DNA of 64,000 nucleotides from Acinetobacter phage Ab1-TPeters, in sequence record PP763253.1. The stretch is one strand, 5' to 3'. Of the stretch, positions 2,961 to 47,320 are shown in pieces (positions within the stretch are counted from its first letter, which is position 1; each line of letters begins with the position of its first letter). The translations under genes were made by a program, and so were the position numbers. The notes beneath the pieces are model-generated. The model was not told the DNA's origin and did no database searches. It saw only the letters and a list, made by a program, of their open reading frames with translations.

Positions 2961-3524
2961 GTGTTTGTGGCTGATCCTTTAGTTGAGAAATTCCAGATAG
3001 TTGGAATGCGCTATGGTGATTATTCTAATATCTATAAGCAAATGACTCTGGATCACTTGGATAGAGAGTTCAGATCAAAGAGCAGAAATGGTGAGAACAT
3101 TTATATGTTCAATGACCCATTCAATGAAGCTGATAAGACTGCAGTTGTATTAAGAGGATCTCGAGGTACATTTGGCTTCTTAGCTAAGAACTGTGCTGGC
3201 TATGGCTCAACTGAGAACATCCGTAGTATAATGGCAGCTTGTGATGAAGTCAAATTAGTTATCAAGGAGTTTACCCAGTCAGCTGCAGATAAGGGTATTG
3301 AGAGCGTAAAGTTTACTGGTGTAGTAGCTATTGACCACTTTGCCTTTGATCCAAAGCTAATTAAGATTAAAGTGCCAATTAGCTTAAACACAAGAACTCC
3401 ATTTGATTCTTACATAAACAACGCGTCTACTCCACCTGAAATTAGAGAACGATTCAGCAGAATTATAAACTCTGATTCCAGCTTTGACTGGGATCTTAAT
3501 CCATTATCGGATGAGGATTGGTAA
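2961..3524 (+). CDS. hypothetical protein (frame open upstream to 2679 with no start codon)
   Basis: 187 aa from the ATG; the same frame is stop-free for 94 codons upstream back to the stop of the previous gene. Confidence 0.4.
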   Translation: MFVADPLVEKFQIVGMRYGDYSNIYKQMTLDHLDREFRSKSRNGENIYMFNDPFNEADKTAVVLRGSRGTFGFLAKNCAGYGSTENIRSIMAACDEVKLVIKEFTQSAADKGIESVKFTGVVAIDHFAFDPKLIKIKVPISLNTRTPFDSYINNASTPPEIRERFSRIINSDSSFDWDLNPLSDEDW

Positions 3525-4073
3525 ATGACTACCTTAATTAATATCTTTGGTGGACCTAGTGCTGGTAAAACAACACTTTCACTGGGTCTAACCTACGCCT
3601 TAAAGATGGCTGGATATAAAGCTGAATACGTTCACGAAGTAGCTAAATACCCAGCTTTAGTCAATGACATCAAGTACTTTGATTCCCAGTATCATGTCAC
3701 TAACAATCAACATAAGCTTCTTTCTGCTTACTTAGATAATGGTGATCTTGATTTCGTTATTACTGATGCTCCTTTACCATTGGGTTTAATCTATGGTGAG
3801 CATTATGGTAAACTCGACAAGATCACCAAAGAAGCTATTGAAGATCTTTGCTGTTCAGTTCGCTGTAAATCAGTGGTAAACATCCTCAAAGTATATGATC
3901 CAGAAGTAGCTTACGATCCTGTTGGTCGATATCAAATTCAGACAGAAGCTCACGAAATTCACCGTAAAATGACTAAGTTTATCGCTGGAGTAGATCACAT
4001 TCAGATCGGTAAACTTAACGATGAAGTAATCAAAGATCTCGTAACCAATTTAATAAAGAGACATTTTAAATGA
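3525..4073 (+). CDS. P-loop NTPase, kinase-like
   Basis: Walker A FGGPSAGKTT at N-terminus; Walker-B-like DFVITDAP. Confidence 0.5.
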   Translation: MTTLINIFGGPSAGKTTLSLGLTYALKMAGYKAEYVHEVAKYPALVNDIKYFDSQYHVTNNQHKLLSAYLDNGDLDFVITDAPLPLGLIYGEHYGKLDKITKEAIEDLCCSVRCKSVVNILKVYDPEVAYDPVGRYQIQTEAHEIHRKMTKFIAGVDHIQIGKLNDEVIKDLVTNLIKRHFK

Positions 4074-4663
4074 AGCTCATAATGATCAATGGTGCTCCTT
4101 ATTCTGGTAAGGATACAGTTGCAAATCACTTAATGGAGCGTAGTAACGTTTATCGTGCTCGTTTTAAAGATCCACTGTATGAGGCACTTTCTCTATTCTA
4201 CGGTCTTCCACTCAAAGAAGTTGAAGATCTTTGTAATTCACCTAAGGAAATCAAGGATTCACCTCATCCTAAATTCAATGGCAAGTCACCACGTGGTGCT
4301 TTGATTCATATGTCTGAAGATGTGATGAAGCCCAACTTCGGTCTGGATATTGTTAGTAAACTTACTGCTAAGAAAATTCAATGTCTTGAATTAGGTCGTG
4401 ATTACTTTGACTCTGAACTGGTTGTAGTTATGCCAGATTGTGGTTTCCCGAATGAAGTTGAAGAACTTCAGGCTATGTTAGGTCTAGATCGTTCAGACAT
4501 CTTCTTGATTCGAATTGAACGTGAAGGATGTAGTTTTGAGGGTGACTCAAGAACCTACGTACCTAATCCAGACTTAGTTATTTTCAATAACTCTAGTCTA
4601 GTTGACCTATATGCTGTTGTTAATTACAGCGTAATTAATTTTCTAAATAAAGGATCTAAATAA
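4070..4663 (+). CDS. deoxynucleoside monophosphate kinase-like (T4 gp1-like)
   Basis: N-terminus MKLIMINGAPYSGKDT resembles T4 dNMP kinase N-terminus and P-loop. Confidence 0.5.
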   Translation: MKLIMINGAPYSGKDTVANHLMERSNVYRARFKDPLYEALSLFYGLPLKEVEDLCNSPKEIKDSPHPKFNGKSPRGALIHMSEDVMKPNFGLDIVSKLTAKKIQCLELGRDYFDSELVVVMPDCGFPNEVEELQAMLGLDRSDIFLIRIEREGCSFEGDSRTYVPNPDLVIFNNSSLVDLYAVVNYSVINFLNKGSK

Positions 4664-4935
4664 TGACCTCTGTAAATCGCTTAATGAAAGACGCAGTAGC
4701 TCGCGCAAATGGAGTAAAACCGCAAGTATTCGCTTTAGTTACTGCTGGTAATAAAGGTTTTGATTGCTGGTCTAACTCAGCTGATCCAGCTCAGACAGCA
4801 GGTATTCTGGTTTCAAATACAGTGGCTATTATTCAGAACCAAGTAAAACCAGAGAAGCAGAATGAAGTAATTGATTCTTTGATCAAAGTACTTGAGAAGG
4901 CTAAAGAGGCAATTGAGAATAAGCCTGTCTCTTAA
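4663..4935 (+). CDS. hypothetical protein
   Basis: 90 aa ORF, ATGA overlap. Confidence 0.35.
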   Translation: MTSVNRLMKDAVARANGVKPQVFALVTAGNKGFDCWSNSADPAQTAGILVSNTVAIIQNQVKPEKQNEVIDSLIKVLEKAKEAIENKPVS

Positions 4936-4987
4936 ATCGCTCCAAAACCTGTTTAGGTGTGGTTGGGACACTTCCCGCCTAAACAGG
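4924..4987 (+). promoter_or_regulatory. conserved intergenic element copy with 10-bp stem hairpin
   Basis: CCTGTCTCTTAAATCGC...AAAACCTGTTTAGG...CCTAAACAGG, then AGGAG RBS. Confidence 0.4.
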
Positions 4988-5089
4988 AGAGTAACATGTT
5001 CAGATCGATTATCATTAACATCTGGAAGTTTAAGTTGATCATAAAGCCATCTAAAATTAATTTATACTTTGTTTCTCACAATAAAGTAG

Positions 5090-5356
5090 GTGGTTCGAGA
5101 ATTCGCATTTCTCGTAAAATATTTTGAGGTCTTTATGAACTTAATGCATATAAAATTAATTCACAACGTTATCAGAGTTAACCCTGGAAGTAGATTCCCA
5201 GATGGTACAAGACGACCTGCTCTTTATCTTGGTAAAGATCAGTGCTCTTATACACCCTGTCGTGAGGAAGCTCTTAAGCTTAAAGACGAGATCATAGTAA
5301 ATTTCATACCTATGATTAAAGAAAACAATTGGTCAATAGTCCCTTGCTTTGACTAA
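5090..5356 (+). CDS. hypothetical protein (start more likely ATG near 5135)
   Basis: ORF; internal ATG MNLMHIKLI preceded by a GAGG-like RBS. Confidence 0.3.
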   Translation: MVREFAFLVKYFEVFMNLMHIKLIHNVIRVNPGSRFPDGTRRPALYLGKDQCSYTPCREEALKLKDEIIVNFIPMIKENNWSIVPCFD

Positions 5357-5373
5357 GTTCACTAGGTGCTTAA

Positions 5374-5730
5374 TTGCACCTATTTTATTTTATGGAATTC
5401 AAAATGTCTGACAAATTACACTTAAATATGGAAGTGATCTTCTCAACTGAAGCGCGTTCACCTCAGGGAATCCTCATGAACGCTGTTAAGAAGATTTATT
5501 GTCTAAAAGAAAATGATTGGTCTATCTCCAAACACCCAGATGATCTTAAGATTTTAATTCTTAACGCTGAGTTAGATCACATTTCTGATGTAGACAAACT
5601 TCATGACTTGCTTATTGATAAAGCTAACCATGATCTAGTTCTCCAATTGAATATTGGGATAGGGTTTGTTGCTCTAAATGATCGAGTCAATAAGGATTAC
5701 ACCAACGTAGTTGGTTCTAGCAATGACTAG
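5374..5730 (+). CDS. hypothetical protein
   Basis: 118 aa ORF. Confidence 0.3.
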   Translation: MHLFYFMEFKMSDKLHLNMEVIFSTEARSPQGILMNAVKKIYCLKENDWSISKHPDDLKILILNAELDHISDVDKLHDLLIDKANHDLVLQLNIGIGFVALNDRVNKDYTNVVGSSND

Positions 5731-6109
5731 CGAATCTTCATATTTTCCGATGGATGGAAATGCCTCAACTTGGCATGGTCGTCAGATAGAGAAGCTCATT
5801 GGCAGATCATATCAGACGATAGTTAGGCAAGTTGAAGACAATTCCCACTTATTTCCAAGCAAGAATTATGTAATTGTGCCTCACCAGATTGTTAAGTCAG
5901 TTCCAGCTGGAGTTAAGAAGACTTCTTACCGTTGTATTAAGTTTGAAGTTAAAACCCTGATTATGTCAAAAGAAGACTGGATGACTTACTTGATAATGTT
6001 CAAGAATCCTTTTCAAGAAGACTTAGTTAAGCAAATTAAGAAAGGTTGGACATTCGCTGAACTAGAGATTCCACATAAGAAAGTTAAATACAGCCAATCT
6101 TCACAATAA
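5711..6109 (+). CDS. hypothetical protein
   Basis: 132 aa ORF. Confidence 0.3.
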   Translation: MVLAMTSESSYFPMDGNASTWHGRQIEKLIGRSYQTIVRQVEDNSHLFPSKNYVIVPHQIVKSVPAGVKKTSYRCIKFEVKTLIMSKEDWMTYLIMFKNPFQEDLVKQIKKGWTFAELEIPHKKVKYSQSSQ

Positions 6110-17375: not shown

Positions 17376-19217
17376 GTGAGAAGTGAAGTGATTGAATTAG
17401 AAAATAAGGTAGTTGAAGCAAGTAAGGCTTACTATTCAGGTAATCCTATAATGAGTGACTCAGCATTTGATGAAATGATTGATGAGTTACGTAAAGTACA
17501 TCCTGAGTCAGAGTTGTTAAATACAGTTGGCTGGGGAGGTGAAGTAAATGAATCTCACTTAGAGAAATTCCCTCATTCTACTTTCATTGGTGGACTTCCT
17601 GAAATTAAGATTCACAATATTGAATCATTACCAGAATCTGAATTCTATGTTGAGTCAGATAAACTGGATGGAATTACAGGTGTAGCTTACTATGAAAACG
17701 GTGAACTAGTTCGAGTTCTTACTCGATTTGATGGTAAAGAAGGACTTGATATAACTAAGAACTTAGAGTATGCTAATATTCCTAAATCAGTTCCTGTAGG
17801 AATCAAATCAGTTCGAGGTGAAGTTCTTATTACCAGAAAGGATTTTGATGAAGTCTTATCTGAGCATTATTCGAATGAGCGTAACGCTGTAGCTGGAATG
17901 TGTAATCAGAAGAATCTAAGTGATGAACTTAAGAAATATATTAAGTTTGTTGCATATGATATTCCTGAATCAGAAGATTTACCTCACTTGAAATCTAAGT
18001 GGGATAAGCTACGTATGATTGAAGCATGTAAATTTAACCCAGTAAACTATACAGTTCACCTATCTAGAGACTCAGTAATTCAGAGTTTAAAAGAATTCAA
18101 TCCCTACGAGAGATCAATTGAATTTCTTCTTGATGGCGCAGTTGTAGATATCCAGTCTGAAAATAAAACTGTCAAGGTAAAGTACCCAGCTGTAATAAAA
18201 GAAGTTGAAGTAGTCTGTGTAATCTGGCAGCAATCAAAACACGGTAAACTTATTCCAGTAATTCAGACTAAACCAATTGAACTTGACGGAGCAATGGTTA
18301 CTCGGTTTAGTGGATTCAATGCTAAGGCCATTAGCGATAACGGAATTGGAGCTGGAGCAATAATTAAAGTTTGTAGATCAAACATGGTTATTCCTCACTG
18401 GCATTCAACAGTAAAATCAACTCAACCAGATTTACCTGAAGAGGTATATGGTGAAAAGGTTTATTGGGATGGTGTTCATCTAGCTGTGTCAGTGGATGTA
18501 AAGAAACCTTTCCTACATAACTTACTAGCAGTGAATAAGGTTGACGGAATAGGCTGGACTGCAATCACAGAAGCAGTTTCAGTTCTAGGAATTCAAGATG
18601 CATCTCAACTGGTTAACATTTCTAGATTGATCAAAGAGCATAAACCCACAGCTAACTTGATTGTCGGAACTAAGAATCTCTTAGATCACTTCGGGGACAG
18701 TGTTCGTTACCATAAGTTAATTCAAACTTTAGAGAACATCACTAGCCGGACTTACACAATTGCGGATTTGATCGAAATGATGAATCTGAAAGGTGTAGGT
18801 GGAACTGCAGCTCATACTATTGGTCGTGAGGTAAGTCATGGTGAATTCCTATGGATGCTAAGTGATGGAGCTCTTTCAGAAGATCTGGCTAAGAAGTTAC
18901 CTAATTACGTAGCTTGTAATTCTATTATTGAGAATAGATCATATATTCTTGAAATTCTAGAATTAGATCTTGAGATTGTAGACTACGTAGTTGAAGAGCC
19001 TAAAGAAGGATTGAAGGTATGTGCAACTGGGTCACTTTCAATGACTAGAAGCAAGTTGTTTAATGAATGGGCTAAACACGGAGTAATTGAGACAGATGCT
19101 GGAAAAGCTGACGTTTTAGTTTGTTCAGGTGAGGGCTCATCTAAGTGGAAAACTGCTAAGAAACGTGGTATTCCTATTTTAACTGAAGAAGAGTTCGTCT
19201 CTCAATATCTCAAGTGA
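17376..19217 (+). CDS. ligA: NAD-dependent DNA ligase
   Basis: 613 aa; adenylation motif ESDKLDG; N-terminal Ia-like domain (YY..NPIMSDSAFDEMIDEL); C-terminal BRCT-like segment. Confidence 0.85.
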   Translation: MRSEVIELENKVVEASKAYYSGNPIMSDSAFDEMIDELRKVHPESELLNTVGWGGEVNESHLEKFPHSTFIGGLPEIKIHNIESLPESEFYVESDKLDGITGVAYYENGELVRVLTRFDGKEGLDITKNLEYANIPKSVPVGIKSVRGEVLITRKDFDEVLSEHYSNERNAVAGMCNQKNLSDELKKYIKFVAYDIPESEDLPHLKSKWDKLRMIEACKFNPVNYTVHLSRDSVIQSLKEFNPYERSIEFLLDGAVVDIQSENKTVKVKYPAVIKEVEVVCVIWQQSKHGKLIPVIQTKPIELDGAMVTRFSGFNAKAISDNGIGAGAIIKVCRSNMVIPHWHSTVKSTQPDLPEEVYGEKVYWDGVHLAVSVDVKKPFLHNLLAVNKVDGIGWTAITEAVSVLGIQDASQLVNISRLIKEHKPTANLIVGTKNLLDHFGDSVRYHKLIQTLENITSRTYTIADLIEMMNLKGVGGTAAHTIGREVSHGEFLWMLSDGALSEDLAKKLPNYVACNSIIENRSYILEILELDLEIVDYVVEEPKEGLKVCATGSLSMTRSKLFNEWAKHGVIETDAGKADVLVCSGEGSSKWKTAKKRGIPILTEEEFVSQYLK

Positions 19218-30830: not shown

Positions 30831-32144
30831 ATGAATAACCGTATCAACCTAGTATTAAGCGTAGCTCGTGATTCAGACATCCGCAAGACTACCAATGGGG
30901 AAGTAACTAACATCGGTTTATATAATTTTAGATTCAAAGAGCCTGTTCCATTTGAGGGTGGATTATTCTGTCAAAAGATTTTTGGGCCAATCAAAGACTA
31001 CACTTGTGCATGCGGTGCACGTAAAGGTGGTAAGACAGTTGATGGTAAAGCACCATCTTGCGAGATCTGTGGGGTAGATCTAGTGAAGTCTGAGGTTCGT
31101 TCAAAACGTGAAGGTTATATTGATGCGAAAGTACATTATGTAAATGCATATGCAATGCCACTCTTGGGTGCAATTCTTCAAATTGGTGAGGGTAATATTG
31201 AAGGAATATGCAATGGTACTATGTATTTCCGTTTTAAAGAATCAATGAACGGTCTTCGTTCAATGTCTGGTAAGTTTTATTCAATTGAGCTATCAAAAGA
31301 AGACAAGACTTGGGGTACTTCTGCTGAGGAGCTCCTGGATGCAATTCAAGATCTTGATTTGGATTCTGCTTACATTATGAAGAACTGCAATAGCCGAGAC
31401 GTGAATCGCTATCACGATAAGGGTTACACTATTTCAGACTTCTTCTGCTCTCACGTGCGAGTGTCCCCTCCACGTACTCGTGATATGTCCGTAGTAAATA
31501 AGGATATATCATTTCACCCAGTAAACAACATCTACGCTCGTATCGTTCGAATTGGAGCACGAGTAGCAACTTTAACCAACCAGATTCTGGAATATGATGG
31601 TGAGTTAAACTTAGAGCAATTAAAACAAGTGATTCGTGGTGAATCAATTGTGCTCCAAGCGCTAATTGATGCCTTGTTGTTTAAAGGAGCTACAGATTAC
31701 CGTGGAAATGAGATTCCATCAGTTATCTCTTCACTTGGAGGTAAGGAAGGTATCGTCCGTGGTAACTTACTGGGTAAACGAGTTGACTTCTCTGGTCGAT
31801 CTGTGATCATTTCCGGACCTGAACTTCCGTTAGATACAATCGGTGTTCCTTGGAAAATGATGTATGAGTTGCTTAAGCCGTTTATTCTGAATAAGCTAAT
31901 TGAGCATCTTGAGGATCTTGATGGTATTTTAACCAGCCAGACTTTGAAGAAAGCTCGAACTATGTATGCTAACAAGAGCACAGAAGCAATGATGTTTATG
32001 CGAGAGTTAGCAGACAGACACTGGGCATTCTTGAATCGTGCACCGTCACTTCACAGATACTCAGTAATGGCGTTCAAAATACAGCTTCACAGTGGTAAAG
32101 CAATTAAGCTGCCACCTATGCTTTGTTCACCATTCAACGCGGAT
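30831..32144 (+). CDS. multisubunit RNA polymerase beta-prime subunit, N-terminal half, exon 1
   Basis: Zinc-binding CACG...CEICG region aligns with E. coli beta-prime C70-C88; GKRVDFSGRSVIISGPEL aligns with [36 protein letters not shown] aligns with LLNRAPTLHRLGIQAFEP; exon ends ...PFNAD, the first three residues of the catalytic NADFDGD motif. Confidence 0.85.
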
Positions 32145-32504
32145 TAATCCCAAGCAGAGTCCGCCCAGATTAGAAATGATTTGGACAAAAACTTCCTTAA
32201 TTGCTGGAACGTCCTTAATGGATAATCAGCAGCTGGGTTCAATTATGAACAGAGTTCAACGACTATCGAAAGCCGATTTAGAGTGGGGACAATCTAAATT
32301 GAAGCAAGTAGAGTACAGCCAAGCGGTAGGTTGTTACGTGGAATGGCGTAACAATAATTCCTTTAAATGGAAACAGGAAGACCTAATCACTGTAGACCAC
32401 AGTGTAAGGATATGAGATAGTCTCAACGTTCTATAGTAATATAGAGCAGTGTTTATAGCCAATAAACACGGTCGTAAGCTAGCGATTTACGATGAAGATA
32501 ATTG
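32145..32504 (+). other. group I self-splicing intron (ORF-less, 360 nt)
   Basis: 5' exon ends in U32144. Internal guide GUCCGC (32159-32164) pairs with exon GCGGAU, with a U-G wobble at the splice site. P7 halves CAACGACUAUCG (~32256-32268) and GAUAUGAGAUAGUCUC (~32409-32425) form GACUA/UAGUC. Terminal G at 32504 sits immediately before exon 2, which encodes FDGDQMAIH. Confidence 0.8.
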
Positions 32505-32678
32505 TTTGATGGGGATCAAATGGCAATTCACCTTATTCTTAGTTGTCAAGCAATGGATGAAGTCGAGTTCATTCGTGTTCAGAACAACCGTATGAATTCT
32601 ATTAACTGGGATACACCTTTACTCGCTCCGAGCCATGAGCAGATTGTGGGCTTACTTGAATTAACTTTGGGCGAATAA
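32505..32678 (+). CDS. RNA polymerase beta-prime N-terminal half, exon 2
   Basis: Translates FDGDQMAIHLILSCQAMDEVEFIRVQNNRMNSINWDTPLLAPSHEQIVGLLELTLGE; aligns with E. coli [55 protein letters not shown]; stop at 32676-32678, so the subunit is split here. Confidence 0.8.
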   Translation, partial: FDGDQMAIHLILSCQAMDEVEFIRVQNNRMNSINWDTPLLAPSHEQIVGLLELTLGE

Positions 32679-33709: not shown

Positions 33710-34441
33710 ATGAATAAACGTATCTCAGATCATCTTCTTAAAATTTCTGAATTGAAAAGACTTGCCAAACATAACTCTTATCAATATGGATCTTACAGGA
33801 AAGCAGCTGATGTAATTAGAAATCTAAACTTCGAACTAACTCCGGATTATGATTTCAAATCACTTCGTGGAGTAGGAGCTGCAATTGATTCTGAAATACG
33901 TGAATTCTTAGAGTGTGGTGATAAAACCCCAAGATTCAAAAAGTACTACTCTGAAATCTCAGCTGAGTATATTGCCAATGACGAAGAAGTTAAAGATTCT
34001 ATTCTTGACTTCTTTACGGAATTTGGTAGTGACTACAAGGTATCTGTAGCTGGTTCAATAAGAAGAAACTCACCTTTCATTAGGGACGTTGATTTACTAA
34101 CTACAGCTCCAGCTAAAGTAATCTACGACATGTTAGAAAAATCTGCTAGATTTGAATACGTCTATGGGGCAGATCGTAAGGTTAGATTCAAAGACGTATT
34201 TCTTGATCTGGAATATGACATCAAGATGTGTCCTGAAGAGTCATGGATCCCTTGTTTACTGCACTCAACTGGATCAGCGGCACATAATATCCAGATGAGA
34301 GCTAGAGCCAAGAAGCTCGGTCTTACTCTAAATGAATACGGTTTATTTGACAAAGACAAACCTGTTAGGCAATGTTATACAGATGAGCGTGAGATCTTTG
34401 AGGATCTTGGAATGATTTATATCTCTCCGGAGTATCGCTGA
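33710..34441 (+). CDS. minimal family X DNA polymerase (Pol beta-like)
   Basis: 243 aa; HhH-like LRGVGAAIDSEI; VAGSIRRNSPFIRDVDLLTTAP matches Pol beta GSFRRG...DMDVLLTHP; C-terminus LHSTGSAAHNIQMRARAKKLGLTLNEYGLF...EREIFEDLGMIYISPEYR matches Pol beta YFTGS..FN..MR..A...G..LNEY.......E..IF..L...Y..PE.R. Confidence 0.6.
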   Translation: MNKRISDHLLKISELKRLAKHNSYQYGSYRKAADVIRNLNFELTPDYDFKSLRGVGAAIDSEIREFLECGDKTPRFKKYYSEISAEYIANDEEVKDSILDFFTEFGSDYKVSVAGSIRRNSPFIRDVDLLTTAPAKVIYDMLEKSARFEYVYGADRKVRFKDVFLDLEYDIKMCPEESWIPCLLHSTGSAAHNIQMRARAKKLGLTLNEYGLFDKDKPVRQCYTDEREIFEDLGMIYISPEYR

Positions 34442-37198: not shown

Positions 37199-38140
37199 AT
37201 GAAAATCCTCGGACTTGATTTAGGTTACGGACACAACAAATGCTGTTATGGTGAGGATGGAAAGATTAAGAATCTTTTCAAAATACCATCTGTTTTAGCT
37301 AATGTTGAAAAACATGAACTGGCTAACGACAAACGAATTGTTGAATTTGAAAATGAACATTACTACGTGGGTGATGACGCTCTAGCTGTAGCTAGTAATC
37401 AAATTCTTGATATTAACAGCTATGCTAAACTTGAATTTGCTGCTCCTATCTTTATTTACAAAGTATGTAAGGATCTTGACATTAACCCAGATCGTTTGGT
37501 TCTTGGTTTATCTATTGCTCAGATTGCTAACTCTGGTTATTTCAAAGAGCGCATCGAGAAGTTCTTAGTTTCAAATGGCATTGAATGTGAAATTCTTTTA
37601 GTGCCTCAAGGTATGATTGCTAAGCTTGCTATTGATAAGTATGGCTTCAATTTTCCTACTGAGACTACTGAATTTGAATCACTTCGTAACTACGTAGGTG
37701 TGGATATCGGATTTAACACTCTGGATATCTTTCAAGTAACCAATGGAAAAACTTCATCTAACTTAGTTCGCGGTATTGAAGAGCGTGGTATTCAAGTAAT
37801 TGTTCACCGTTTGCTTACTGATATTAAGAACAGACTCGGAGTTAACCTTACCGTAAGTGAAGGCAAAGAGGTTCTAGATAACGGATTCCTTCGTCGACGT
37901 GGTAAGAATATTGATTTCTCTGAAGAGATAAATAAGCAAGTTAAAGTTTATGCTGAAGAACTAAGCGTTTTAATTGAAAACGAGTTTGGTGAAGTTCTTA
38001 ATAAATCTGAAGCTTTAGTTCTTTTCGGTGGTGGTAGTTACTCACTTAAATCACTTGAATCTTCATTTGTCAAAATTCCTGCTCAAAAAGCAGAGTTTTA
38101 TAACGTAATTGGTTTTTACTTATTCGGGGATCGTAAATAA
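37199..38140 (+). CDS. actin-like ATPase (ParM/Alp-like)
   Basis: Phosphate-1 ILGLDLGYGHNK, phosphate-2 VGVDIGFNTLDI, adenosine motif LVLFGGGSYSL. Confidence 0.55.
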   Translation: MKILGLDLGYGHNKCCYGEDGKIKNLFKIPSVLANVEKHELANDKRIVEFENEHYYVGDDALAVASNQILDINSYAKLEFAAPIFIYKVCKDLDINPDRLVLGLSIAQIANSGYFKERIEKFLVSNGIECEILLVPQGMIAKLAIDKYGFNFPTETTEFESLRNYVGVDIGFNTLDIFQVTNGKTSSNLVRGIEERGIQVIVHRLLTDIKNRLGVNLTVSEGKEVLDNGFLRRRGKNIDFSEEINKQVKVYAEELSVLIENEFGEVLNKSEALVLFGGGSYSLKSLESSFVKIPAQKAEFYNVIGFYLFGDRK

Positions 38141-43820: not shown

Positions 43821-44258
43821 TTATTCATCCTTTCTCAAATTACTTAGCTTATCTAACCTATCTTTAGCCTTATCTCGTGTTTCAGGATCAGTCGCCCAAT
43901 TTAGTAATATTACTAAGATAGGTGCACCTAGGCAACCTAACACGAAAGCTGGGCCAGTCAAAACTGCAGGTGTCCATTCCAGCCATGCATTTAAGCTAAT
44001 GCAGGGAAATAACCCCGCACCAGTACCAATAATTATTTTAGCTACTCTAGGATCTTGAGTAAGTTCAGAGTCTACAGGTGTTTTAATAAAAATAGAACAA
44101 ACACCTCCAAACACTGAAGCAAACAATACAGACCAGAAACCCCACTGGATGGTGTCACTTACTCGTTCTTGAAGCCAAACCCCAGCATAAGCTGAGATTG
44201 GCAGTGAAAAAGTAAGTAACAGGATTAAATTCATTAAGAATTTCATGAAACACCTCAA
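43821..44258 (-). CDS. membrane protein (3-4 TM helices), possible holin-like
   Basis: 145 aa, multiple hydrophobic helices, charged C-terminus; sits in the lysis/fiber neighbourhood. Confidence 0.3.
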   Translation of the reverse strand: MRCFMKFLMNLILLLTFSLPISAYAGVWLQERVSDTIQWGFWSVLFASVFGGVCSIFIKTPVDSELTQDPRVAKIIIGTGAGLFPCISLNAWLEWTPAVLTGPAFVLGCLGAPILVILLNWATDPETRDKAKDRLDKLSNLRKDE

Positions 44259-47200
44259 ATTATAGTAGTTCTGATATTCTTAACCTCAGGATCTGCAGAA
44301 TAAGAAGTAGAACTTAGTTCAATCTTGATTCTAGTAGCTGCAAGGCTAAGATTATCTACTTTGTATTCTACAGTTTGTCTACCAAAACCAATGTCTGTTC
44401 CAGATTTATTAGTTATCTCTTGGAAATCACCATTGGCTAATTGATAGAAAACTTTTACTTTAGAGTTTAAAGGCTCGTATTGATCCAGATAAATTCTAAG
44501 GCTAGCTGGTGTAACAAGTCCATTCTTGATTGTGAACTGACGTTGAACGTAAGTAGCAGGGCTATCTGAGGTTCCGTAAACCAATGAAATACCTGAAAGT
44601 ACTTTAGGTGATTTCTTAGTATCGTTAGTTTTTAATTCAAGCCATAGTTCTATATTACCCGCAGATACCTCGATAGGCGGAACTTTAACCACTTCATTAA
44701 CAGATAGATCGTAAGTAGCAGATCCAACTTTCATGAAGAAGCGTGCAGATGTGCCAGTTGGTGTATCCACGTCAGCTACTACTTTAAAGTTAGTTGCTTG
44801 ATCTACCAAATTATTTACAGTAAGTACTTTAACAGTTTTAGTTGGTTTATAAGTTATACTATGTAGTTTGAAAGTTAAGTCTTCATCCTGAACTGATGTC
44901 CAAGTTCTCTCATTAGCTGATAAAAGTAGAACTCCGTCATGAGTTTGATTTCTGACCCATTTAGAAGTTGCAGTACTGTATTCACCTACTCTAGCTGTAG
45001 CTACTTTACCTTGGAAGTTAGCAGTTGCTACAATCAAAGCATATTCAACACCAGCAATTACTTTAATAGGCATTTTTAAGTTGATTTTATTCCAACCTAA
45101 TTTTAGAGACTTATGGCTAACTGAACCTAAACCTAATAGATCATTCCAGTTAGGGATACCAGCTACTGTAGAAACTATTTTTATTTGTAAAGTGTTAGTA
45201 GGTAATTCTGTTAGGTAAATTGAAACAGCACTCAATTCTTGGTCAACTGCAGGTAAGAAAGTCTGAGAAACTGGATCGTAACCCCATGGTACTTCTTTAC
45301 CATTCCAGTTGAAGTCACCTTTGTCTCGAGTTTTACTCAATTTGAGTGACAAAATAGCTCGACAGGTTGCCCTTGAAGTTCTGCCAGTTGCAATTACATC
45401 ATAATCACCTAGAGTTGTGCCAACTGCTATTGGAATTCTAGCTTTAGCTTTACCTTGTGAATCAGCAGTAACTGTGGAAACTATGTTACCTCTGAATCTT
45501 ACATCAATCAACTCACCTGAGTTAAATAGGCTAAGGTTAGCGTAGCTTTCAGTAGCTCTTGGCATAAAGTTACCGTGGAAGTAACGCCACCAAGCATTTG
45601 CATACAGAGTGCCTGGGCTTAATGATATAACTGCCTGAGGAGCGTTACCTTGAGAATATGGGTTAATCCTTTGATCTTTAGTTATTTCTAACTGCTGGTC
45701 AAAAACTATCTCAGAAGCTGAATCAAGAGAGAAACTAGAGTCAGAGTTTAAGGCATTTGCTAGATAATTTGTTCCAATTTTCAAAGCAGTGTCTTCAATT
45801 ACTGCATTTTGATCTATACCTTGATCTCTCATATTCTCATTAAGAAGAGAGTCAACTATAATTCCACGTTTGTTAGTAACTGGATCTAAGGCACTAGCTT
45901 CGTCTTTAAGTGACAATTGAGCTACGTTATAGACTAAGTTGTCTACATCTGATCTTAATTTCTTAAGGTCAGAGAAGCTCATGATCATGACAGTACTTTC
46001 TTGGTCAATTACAGGATCTGCACCTAAAGCTACTGTTACTGTTCCAAGTGATAAATATGGGCCAGATGGAACTGATGGAGGAAGTACATAATTTGGAGTA
46101 TTTGGAGTTCCTCGTTGAACGTGAATTTCACCTTGGCTATTCAATAGAATTCTGTCAATTCTGGATAAGTAGAAATCATAATCAACATACATAACTGAGT
46201 TATGAACTACTTCAGCAGCGTCTTCATCAAATAATCTTAGACTTCCGTTAAGAATATACGCACTAAAGTTAGCTACAAATTGAAATTCTACTTGATAACT
46301 AGAACCAGGAGATGGTTCAGCCCCATTTGGAGTCCAGCTTATTGTATCGCCAGATTGAACATAATCAACGTTAGGTTGATAAATAGTTCCACCTTGTTTC
46401 ACTGAAAGAATTTGAAGAACTGGAGTTCTAGGTAAAATATCAACACCACCTCCAACACTACCTCTTGTAACATTAGCAGTTATCTTCTTAGTCGCCATCA
46501 CTTCAGTAATTTGCTTAATAGGTTCATTTCTTAAGCTATAGCTTAGCACTCCAGTTGAGAAAGTAACTGGTTCAGAAACTGTGCTTCTAAAATCAGTGTT
46601 AGCATCAACTAAGAATTCAGTCTCAACTGGGAATTCACACTCCACACCTGACACTCGAGCTGATCCAGAAGATAACAAGAATTTGTAATTGTCTTCAGTA
46701 ACTTCACCAATTTGAATAGAAAGACCTGAGATTACATAAGACCCATGGATACTAAAATCATATCTAGCTATTGATTTGTTGATGGCATTAGTCATATCAG
46801 TTGTTGATTGACTAGTCAATATTTCACCATCTTTTACTGTGAATACAGGAAAGAAAGCCTCACCCTCTTCTACTTTATCGCTAGTTGTCCAGTTACCGAT
46901 TACCTGAATTCTGAAAGCACCTTCTTCAAGATAACCTGGAGATAAAGGATCTGGTTCTAGTAAAGCAGCGTCTTCATTGGCAGTTACAGTTCTTTCAGTT
47001 ACTACAACTCCAACTAGAGTTAATCCCTCAGGAAGATTAATCTCTGTTTTCTGACAATGGGTAGGTAAGCCTTCAATTGAAAGAGTGCCTTCATTGATAA
47101 CTAATTGTGAAGCAGATAAACTTTCTACTTCACAACCAGTTAAAATAGTTCCATTAGAAACTAAATGTCTGCTAACTTTCTTTAACAACTCAAGAATATT

Positions 47201-47320
47201 GTCCTGAAGCTCATTCATTTCAGCAGATTGCAATGTTCTACCTGCTAAGAACGCTAGCTTTCTATAACCTTTAATAGGGTCATAGTTGTTAAAATAATCT
47301 TCTCTATCTTGAATAGACAT
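44255..47320 (-). CDS. large tail fiber / baseplate structural protein
   Basis: 1021 aa in tail module. Confidence 0.4.
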   Translation of the reverse strand: MSIQDREDYFNNYDPIKGYRKLAFLAGRTLQSAEMNELQDNILELLKKVSRHLVSNGTILTGCEVESLSASQLVINEGTLSIEGLPTHCQKTEINLPEGLTLVGVVVTERTVTANEDAALLEPDPLSPGYLEEGAFRIQVIGNWTTSDKVEEGEAFFPVFTVKDGEILTSQSTTDMTNAINKSIARYDFSIHGSYVISGLSIQIGEVTEDNYKFLLSSGSARVSGVECEFPVETEFLVDANTDFRSTVSEPVTFSTGVLSYSLRNEPIKQITEVMATKKITANVTRGSVGGGVDILPRTPVLQILSVKQGGTIYQPNVDYVQSGDTISWTPNGAEPSPGSSYQVEFQFVANFSAYILNGSLRLFDEDAAEVVHNSVMYVDYDFYLSRIDRILLNSQGEIHVQRGTPNTPNYVLPPSVPSGPYLSLGTVTVALGADPVIDQESTVMIMSFSDLKKLRSDVDNLVYNVAQLSLKDEASALDPVTNKRGIIVDSLLNENMRDQGIDQNAVIEDTALKIGTNYLANALNSDSSFSLDSASEIVFDQQLEITKDQRINPYSQGNAPQAVISLSPGTLYANAWWRYFHGNFMPRATESYANLSLFNSGELIDVRFRGNIVSTVTADSQGKAKARIPIAVGTTLGDYDVIATGRTSRATCRAILSLKLSKTRDKGDFNWNGKEVPWGYDPVSQTFLPAVDQELSAVSIYLTELPTNTLQIKIVSTVAGIPNWNDLLGLGSVSHKSLKLGWNKINLKMPIKVIAGVEYALIVATANFQGKVATARVGEYSTATSKWVRNQTHDGVLLLSANERTWTSVQDEDLTFKLHSITYKPTKTVKVLTVNNLVDQATNFKVVADVDTPTGTSARFFMKVGSATYDLSVNEVVKVPPIEVSAGNIELWLELKTNDTKKSPKVLSGISLVYGTSDSPATYVQRQFTIKNGLVTPASLRIYLDQYEPLNSKVKVFYQLANGDFQEITNKSGTDIGFGRQTVEYKVDNLSLAATRIKIELSSTSYSADPEVKNIRTTII

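Follow-up and report, generated by a model that had tools for sequence, protein, structure and literature searches.

The 64,000-nucleotide stretch of Acinetobacter phage Ab1-TPeters analyzed here (sequence record PP763253.1; the window) encodes sheath and baseplate proteins and belongs to an uncultured myovirus. It contains a gene predicted to encode the N-terminal part of the beta-prime subunit of a phage RNA polymerase (RNAP), and this gene is interrupted within its catalytic, Mg-binding NADFDGD motif. Exon 1 (30831..32144, 438 codons), assigned from the list of open reading frames (ORFs) and from Pfam and PDB matches, ends ...CSPFNAD; its ORF runs to 32147 and closes with CCA TTC AAC GCG GAT TAA (PFNAD-stop), and T32144 is the final exon base. 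The frame encoding FDGDQMAIH (TTT GAT GGG GAT CAA ATG GCA ATT CAC) opens at 32505, and exon 2 (32505..32678), assigned from its translation and the C-termini of homologues, comprises 57 codons, FDGDQMAIH...SHEQIVGLLELTLGE, and a stop codon at 32676-32678. Gene callers break the gene into a 438-residue 'beta-prime' protein and small orphan ORFs. The intervening 360 nucleotides (nt), 32145..32504, match an Rfam model, fold and covary as a group I intron without a homing-endonuclease gene, and we consider it very likely that this intron is removed by splicing. All exon and intron features given here lie on the + strand. An earlier interpretation made from the letters of this DNA without database searches (the sequence-only reading) had proposed such an intron, and the exon ends, the internal guide, both P7 strands and the terminal G were found at the positions it had named.

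Twelve stop codons of the exon frame lie within the insert, the first being TAA, its first codon. As read from the sequence, the alternative upstream G ends, after 32494 or 32497, run into a stop codon, and G32504, the omega G and last base of the intron, was the only inspected 3' end that gave an open frame collinear with homologues. Joining the exons yields a 495-residue protein with Pfam domains RNA_pol_Rpb1_1 (PF04997) and Rpb1_2 (PF00623). This spliced protein aligned end-to-end with the first ~500 residues of Clostridioides difficile beta-prime in the PDB (7l7b_D; E=6e-62), where ...CSPFNADFDGDQMAIH... faces ...CTAYNADFDGDQMAVH..., with no gap at the junction and with NADFDGDQMA aligned. 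Nine uninterrupted phage homologues (480-532 residues) also aligned with it gaplessly across the junction. Collinearity of the joined exons with uninterrupted homologues places the insertion between the D and the F of NADFDGD, as had been proposed.

The only Rfam match in the 64-kb window was to the group I intron family Intron_gpI (RF00028), at 32135-32446, where model positions 1-253 of 253 aligned with a score of 66 bits against a gathering score of 50 (E=1.6e-14). This model ends at P9; P9.1, P9.2, and the 3' tail fall outside it. An unconstrained minimum-free-energy (MFE) fold of the precursor was 5 standard deviations below those of dinucleotide shuffles (z=-5.0), none of 100 shuffles equaled it, and the MFE fold alone yielded P1, P2, P3, P4, P5, P6, P8, P9, P9.1, and P9.2. 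The sequence at P7 matches the Rfam consensus.

In this structure, the last six bases of exon 1, GCGGAU (32139..32144), pair with the internal guide GUCCGC (32159..32164) to form P1, in which the splice-site U32144 makes a wobble pair with G32159. The adjacent CAGA (32155..32158) is the intron strand of P10 and pairs with UUUG at the start of exon 2 (32505-32508). The P2 hairpin (CCAGAUU/GAUUUGG, 32165..32184) is followed by the 5' strand of P3 (CUUCCU, 32192..32197), whose partner is AGGAAG (32375..32380), by P4 (UGCUGG/UCAGCA) enclosing P5 (GUCC/GGAU) at 32202..32231, and by P6 (32237..32250), a GUUCA AUUA UGAAC hairpin with a four-base loop. J6/7 and the 5' strand of P7 occupy 32254..32265 (GUUCAACGACUA), which does not vary among the seven family members compared below; the core motif is found only once in the window. 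P7 itself pairs GACUA (32261-32265) with UAGUC (32418..32422) in a pseudoknot with P3. Between P7 and the 3' strand of P3 lies a peripheral domain of 109 nt (32266..32374) that contains the conserved AGUAGAGUA at 32307-32315 and, in the MFE fold, three hairpins of the P7.1/P7.2 type (32275-32300, 32330-32355, and 32358-32372). P8 (32382..32409) has an outer CCU/AGG and an inner CACUGU/ACAGUG helix, P9 (32429..32446) is the hairpin UUCUAUA GUAA UAUAGAG, and P9.1 (32449-32469) and P9.2 (32472-32492, with conserved loop GCUAGCGA) fill 32449..32492 in the MFE fold. Extra helices between P7 and P3' are a hallmark of subgroup IA, the home of the classical phage introns. By these helices the intron resembles those of subgroup IA; Rfam itself has a single group I family.

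Several comparisons support this structure. First, we aligned seven family members with MAFFT, after removal of their ORFs and with no structural guidance, and counted pairing in the P1-P9.2 structure. Paired bases filled 83% of alignment cells, compared with 33-43% after a shift of the partners by 1-3 columns, and 24 pairs were changed on both sides, compared with 4-11 for shifted partners; none of 500 shuffles reached the observed values. MAFFT put the guide of two introns one column off and P1 was therefore under-counted; the manual register is correct. RNAalifold recovered P3, P4, P5, P9, and P9.2, with a compensatory change in 15 of 32 predicted pairs, and P2, P3, P5, P6, P8, P9, and P9.2 covary across the seven introns. 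Four of the six P3 pairs were double-changed, with 97.6% of cells paired, as were all six pairs of P9.2, with 100% paired. P4 was also 100% paired, with a single double change (G-C to U-A) that belongs to intron 1 of the Internexus terminase gene, and the seven differing sequences of P8 all paired.

Second, two other phages have a homologous insert at precisely this position. In Vibrio phage 150E35-1 (OX241562.1, where the pieces are annotated only as separate coding sequences), the beta-prime gene stops at ...CSPFNAD-TAA and resumes 1011 nt on with HDGDTMAVH (insert at 4845..5855 of locus L004), and that of JGI contig Ga0489999_000522 (locus L088) stops at ...SPLNAD and resumes 872 nt on with YDGDTLAVH (insert at 3493..4364). 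The beta-prime proteins of these phages are 32% (150E35-1) and 48% (L088, the closest relative) identical to that of the window. Both introns share with the window's the insertion point NAD↓xDGD (arrow, insertion point) and the P1-P9 layout, including P2, whose three sequences in the three introns all pair. P1 changes in step with the silent third position of the Ala codon, GCGGAU/GUCCGC in the window, GCUGAU/GUCAGC in 150E35-1, and GCAGAU/GUCUGC in L088, so that its middle pair is G-C, U-A, and A-U, respectively. The P10 strand likewise tracks the first codon of exon 2, with CAGA for UUU in the window, CAUG for CAU in 150E35-1, and (AU)CGUG for UAC in L088. The two relatives differ from the window's intron in having neither P7.2 hairpins nor P9.1 and in carrying an ORF in the P6 loop (250 residues in 150E35-1 and 204 in L088).

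Third, an intron-less allele is known from Vibrio phage 1.031.O, which is closely related to 150E35-1 and whose beta-prime gene of 3792 nt is uninterrupted; this allele reads TTCAACGCTGAT↓CATGATGGCGAT at the insertion site. The joined exons of 150E35-1 also amount to 3792 nt and, over their full length, are 91.4% identical to this allele, without a difference in the 42 nt surrounding the junction. The two phages form a textbook intron-plus/intron-minus pair, which validates the insertion site used in the window. These precise alleles are those of 150E35-1 and 1.031.O; the nearest beta-prime gene to that of the window phage (48% identity) is intron-plus.

Further copies at this site were sought by pattern. 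A loose pattern of guide plus exon end gave 120 chance matches in IMG/VR, none with a beta-prime gene or an intron core; a strict pattern gave none in IMG/VR and one chance match in the JGI metagenomes (L337, with no core strings visible), a collection that evidently lacks the L088 contig, so that the absence of further same-site copies there is weak evidence. Rfam at its gathering threshold missed the ORF-containing homologues (L004, L088, L091-L095, L125, L140, and others), which we recognized by eye from conserved core strings.

Based upon this anatomy and the established chemistry of group I introns, splicing would follow the standard pathway. The primary transcript would fold into P1-P10, and the guide would pair with the end of exon 1 and present the U32144-G32159 wobble for attack after U32144 by an external guanosine held in P7. 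P10 would align exon 2, G32504 would take the place of the cofactor in the G site, and the 3' OH of exon 1 would then attack after G32504. The ligated mRNA would read GCGGAU↓UUUGAU at the junction (more widely, ...AACGCGGAU↓UUUGAUGGG), for ...CSPFNAD-FDGDQMAIH..., and would encode the 495-residue subunit. Unspliced RNA would yield only a truncated protein without two of the three catalytic aspartates, and active phage RNAP would therefore depend on splicing.

Some points weigh against this account. A helix-by-helix table showed full pairing for every helix in every intron, compared with 38-91% for non-cognate strand combinations, but the table was assembled by eye and its 100% pairing is thus partly built in; the unguided counts given above are the fairer measure. 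P7 is invariant in all seven family members, which is compatible with pairing and uninformative about covariation. Splicing, self-splicing, and the exact junctions are all inferred from sequence.

Among other explanations, the one that survives best, although we think it unlikely, is that the intron is functional but splices in vivo neither autonomously nor constitutively, and either needs a host or phage protein cofactor or is tuned by translation or GTP level in a way that times the appearance of RNAP. Dependence on protein cofactors is common among group I introns, and the td intron of phage T4 is an example of splicing coupled to translation. The large peripheral domains (P7.1/P7.2, P9.1, and P9.2) and a gene product that controls the phage transcription program would suit such regulation, but many self-splicing phage introns of subgroup IA have such peripheral helices and the sequence gives no pointer to a cofactor. 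Regulated splicing would, moreover, refine the explanation by a spliced intron and not replace it.

It is less probable still that the insert is a splicing-dead relic in a gene that is truly split or a pseudogene, with a 438-residue fragment ending in NAD and a 58-residue fragment, started at TTG 32502, that supplies FDGD in trans. An in-frame TTG does lie 3 nt ahead of exon 2, and the absence of a homing-endonuclease gene fits an old, immobile element. No Shine-Dalgarno sequence precedes TTG 32502, but several genes of this phage also lack one, and separate translation is not excluded on that ground, a further point against splicing. In addition, this phage clade, like the jumbo phages, naturally has beta-prime split into separate subunits (PMC7598289), but the natural split point of the clade lies 57 codons further on, at the exon 2 stop. 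The core helices are all intact, P1 and P10 fit this phage's own exons, the Rfam score exceeds the curated threshold, and the exons of 150E35-1, compared with 1.031.O, are under the same constraint as the intron-less allele. We also know of no RNAP that divides the Mg-binding aspartate triad between two chains, which counts against a relic.

An insert of another kind has practically no chance, even though 360 nt is divisible by three and inteins also sit at catalytic motifs, as an intein is excluded by the in-frame stops and the TAA as first intron codon, a translational bypass of the T4 gene 60 type is rejected by a length that far exceeds the 50-nt gap and by the full group I fold, and an assembly artifact is excluded by the identical sequence in a second, independently named assembly record (Logan contig SRR28813070_456, with no mismatch over 14,618 nt) and by the homologous same-site inserts in two phages.

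The spliced group I intron favored here is an ORF-less one, as the sequence-only reading had claimed, with one qualification. The only ORF that overlaps the intron, at 32092-32415 (+), has 107 codons (79 from ATG 32176). It lies in another frame, covers the last part of exon 1 together with three quarters of the intron, and is reported by gene callers. No Pfam or PHROG family matched it, and in the AR9 homologue the corresponding frame, as read from the sequence, is closed by a stop; this ORF is probably not coding. The encoded homing endonuclease that marks a mobile intron is absent from the window's intron, and tblastn found no homologue of the 150E35-1, L088, or AR9 intron ORFs anywhere in the window. 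This copy lost a P6-loop ORF or never had one, and is probably immobile alone or mobilized only in trans.

The P6-loop ORFs of the same-site relatives are putative homing endonucleases. Those of 150E35-1 and L088 are 43% identical (E=5e-49), have a weak match to the GIY-YIG-related Pfam family T5orf172, belong to no PHROG family, and by their sequences appear to form an uncharacterized family. The last ~20 codons of these ORFs (150E35-1, L004 4961-5713; L088, 3614-4228) span P6', J6/7, and P7 and run into P7.1. An intron of Staphylococcus phage Machias (L092 437-1537) also has an ORF in the P6 loop, and its last ~12 codons span J6/7 and P7. Where the ends of intron ORFs overlap the ribozyme core in this way, protein-coding and ribozyme-core constraints overlap.

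As a selfish element, the intron belongs to a family that is widespread among phages. More distant blastn matches of the 360 nt lay in the virion-RNAP beta-prime genes of AR9 and PBS1, in the B-family DNA polymerase gene of Yersinia phage phiR1-37, in introns of terminase genes of Staphylococcus and Bacillus jumbo phages and of ribonucleotide reductase genes of Lactococcus, Brochothrix, and Listeria phages, and in Enterococcus phages, where the host gene has no annotation. The terminase large subunit gene of Bacillus phage Internexus (L096 596-1942) contains four tandem family introns in ~1.4 kb, each scoring 70-94 bits with Rfam. At least 120 IMG/VR stretches contain the core string GTTCARMGACTATCGAAA, and several of these stretches lie within jumbo-phage beta-prime genes. 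In beta-prime genes, the inferred 5' splice sites of the family lie at ILPG↓ (L207), at NAD or 1 nt beyond it (L125, stated in this way since joining the obvious exons gives NADFNIDGD), at DYD↓ (AR9/PBS1, L001), at DYDG↓ (L197), and at DFDGD↓ (L140), and further members lie in the NRxPTLH motif (L116 and L201); the sites of the IMG/VR loci were placed from stop codons and P1/guide pairing only. The beta-prime lineages that host these introns share <30% identity.

Different parts of the window's intron are closest to different relatives. P1-P2 is most similar to the same-site introns (39-49% identity), and both the P7-P3' segment with P7.1/P7.2 and the region from P9 to the 3' end are most similar to the phiR1-37 DNA polymerase intron (69% and 58%) and then to the AR9 beta-prime intron (53% and 50%). 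By these identities the intron looks mosaic, with a P1-P2 region like that of the same-site introns and P7.1/P7.2 and 3' domains like those of phiR1-37 and AR9. We raise as a tentative possibility that the catalytic loop of phage beta-prime is a recurrent landing pad, colonized many times independently by this one group I family. If true, this pattern would fit spread by reverse splicing or core shuffling, and not by endonuclease homing alone.

The sequence-only reading had taken the interrupted gene for that of an RNAP beta-prime subunit. The identity of the gene stood, with the refinement that homologues point to a stand-alone N-terminal subunit of a split RNAP and not to a full beta-prime. 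In related phages, as in eight metagenomic homologues, N-terminal beta-prime is a stand-alone protein of 480-532 residues that terminates at the same ...SHExxVGL... point as exon 2. Homologues thus end where exon 2 ends, and the stop at 32678 is the natural end of the subunit and not a second interruption. As judged from these alignments, the host gene is that of the N-terminal beta-prime subunit of a split, bacterial-type multisubunit phage RNAP. No C-terminal part of beta-prime was found by tblastn in the 64 kb, and no RNAP subunit was found among ten ORFs scanned against Pfam (the largest ones and the two that flank the beta-prime gene). In the intron-less relative L089, 1.2 kb separates the N-terminal gene from a C-terminal beta-prime gene downstream of it. 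Absence of the C-terminal gene here, and its proximity in L089, indicate that this phage has another arrangement of its RNAP genes.

By beta-prime, the nearest sequenced phages are Escherichia phages EP_H11 and IME392, Ralstonia phage RP13 (39% identity), and the Rhizobium RHph phages (36%), and the adjoining DNA polymerase A gene returns the same list at 29-33%. A megablast search with the gene region as query gave no match among 50,697 phage records, and the phage thus has no close sequenced relative. Scans for promoters and terminators around the beta-prime gene gave nothing above chance, and no tRNA genes were found in the window. Elsewhere, the window encodes a NAD-dependent DNA ligase (17376-19217, +), a small family-X-like DNA polymerase with HHH_8 and thumb domains (33710-34441, +), an actin-like protein (37199-38140, +; the identical gene called on the Logan contig matches Pfam ALP_N and MreB-like_C), and, among tail and baseplate genes, a 1021-residue DUF4815 protein with a lectin-like domain (44255-47320, -).

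Group I introns that interrupt essential phage genes at catalytic motifs are classical (PMC3984707, PMC12908238), and both ORF-containing and ORF-less forms are known (PMC3984707). The intron described here is like the classical IA2 introns (T4 td, nrdB, and sunY; the DNA polymerase introns of SPO1 and Bastille; Twort) in interrupting an essential gene at a conserved motif and in having extra P7-P3' helices, but the host genes differ and the likeness is one of layout. Group I introns in phage RNAP genes are also established, in PhiPA3 (PMC11620839) and in AR9 and PBS1 (PMC12350094). The putative group I intron of PhiPA3 gp210 lies next to conserved catalytic aspartates of the virion RNAP but, unlike the window's, is in beta and not beta-prime and encodes an HNH nicking endonuclease shown to serve as a weapon against PhiKZ (Birkholz et al. 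2024, PMC11620839).

In public phage records, the closest relative is the group I intron of AR9/PBS1 g145 (the second intervening sequence), in a virion-RNAP beta-prime N-terminal gene that holds one group II and one group I intron (PMC12350094). This intron is of the same family, with 68-70% DNA identity over the core and with GUUCAACGACUAUCGAAA, AGUAGAGUACAGCCAAGCGGUAG, and GUAGCGA common to both, and it likewise interrupts, in the same catalytic loop, the N-terminal beta-prime gene of a phage multisubunit RNAP, whose exons are joined in GenBank. By contrast, its insertion point lies 6 nt downstream, at DYD↓GDT, as defined by its own P1 (CUACGAU/GUCGUAG), it lacks P2, and its P1 loop contains an ORF for a 494-residue endonuclease of the CapR/zinc-ribbon type. 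The proteins differ as well, AR9 beta-prime being a strongly diverged one of jumbo-phage type and the window protein bacterial-like, and only in AR9 is the gene also interrupted, further upstream, by a group II intron. The first AR9 intervening sequence (L001 728-901 and 2141-2225; the same in PBS1, L003) matches the group II models RF02004 and RF00029; a GenBank note on its ORF reads 'group I intron VSR', and the group II reading agrees with PMC12350094.

The insert is thus an ordinary group I intron at an unusual, attractive place, a new example of a well-known type of selfish element that involves no new mechanism and leaves the workings of group I introns unchanged. Among the papers searched, none names a group I intron together with NADFDGD. 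For annotation, recognizing the intron restores a complete catalytic subunit from split gene calls. For the family, it provides a clean, covariation-supported selfish ribozyme inside the Mg-binding loop of an RNA polymerase, and the same intron family has entered beta-prime genes of both the bacterial and the jumbo-phage type, in phages whose hosts differ widely. Finally, the cultured pair of 150E35-1 (intron-plus, with an ORF) and 1.031.O (intron-minus) offers a system for studying homing or interference competition of the kind known from PhiPA3 and PhiKZ.

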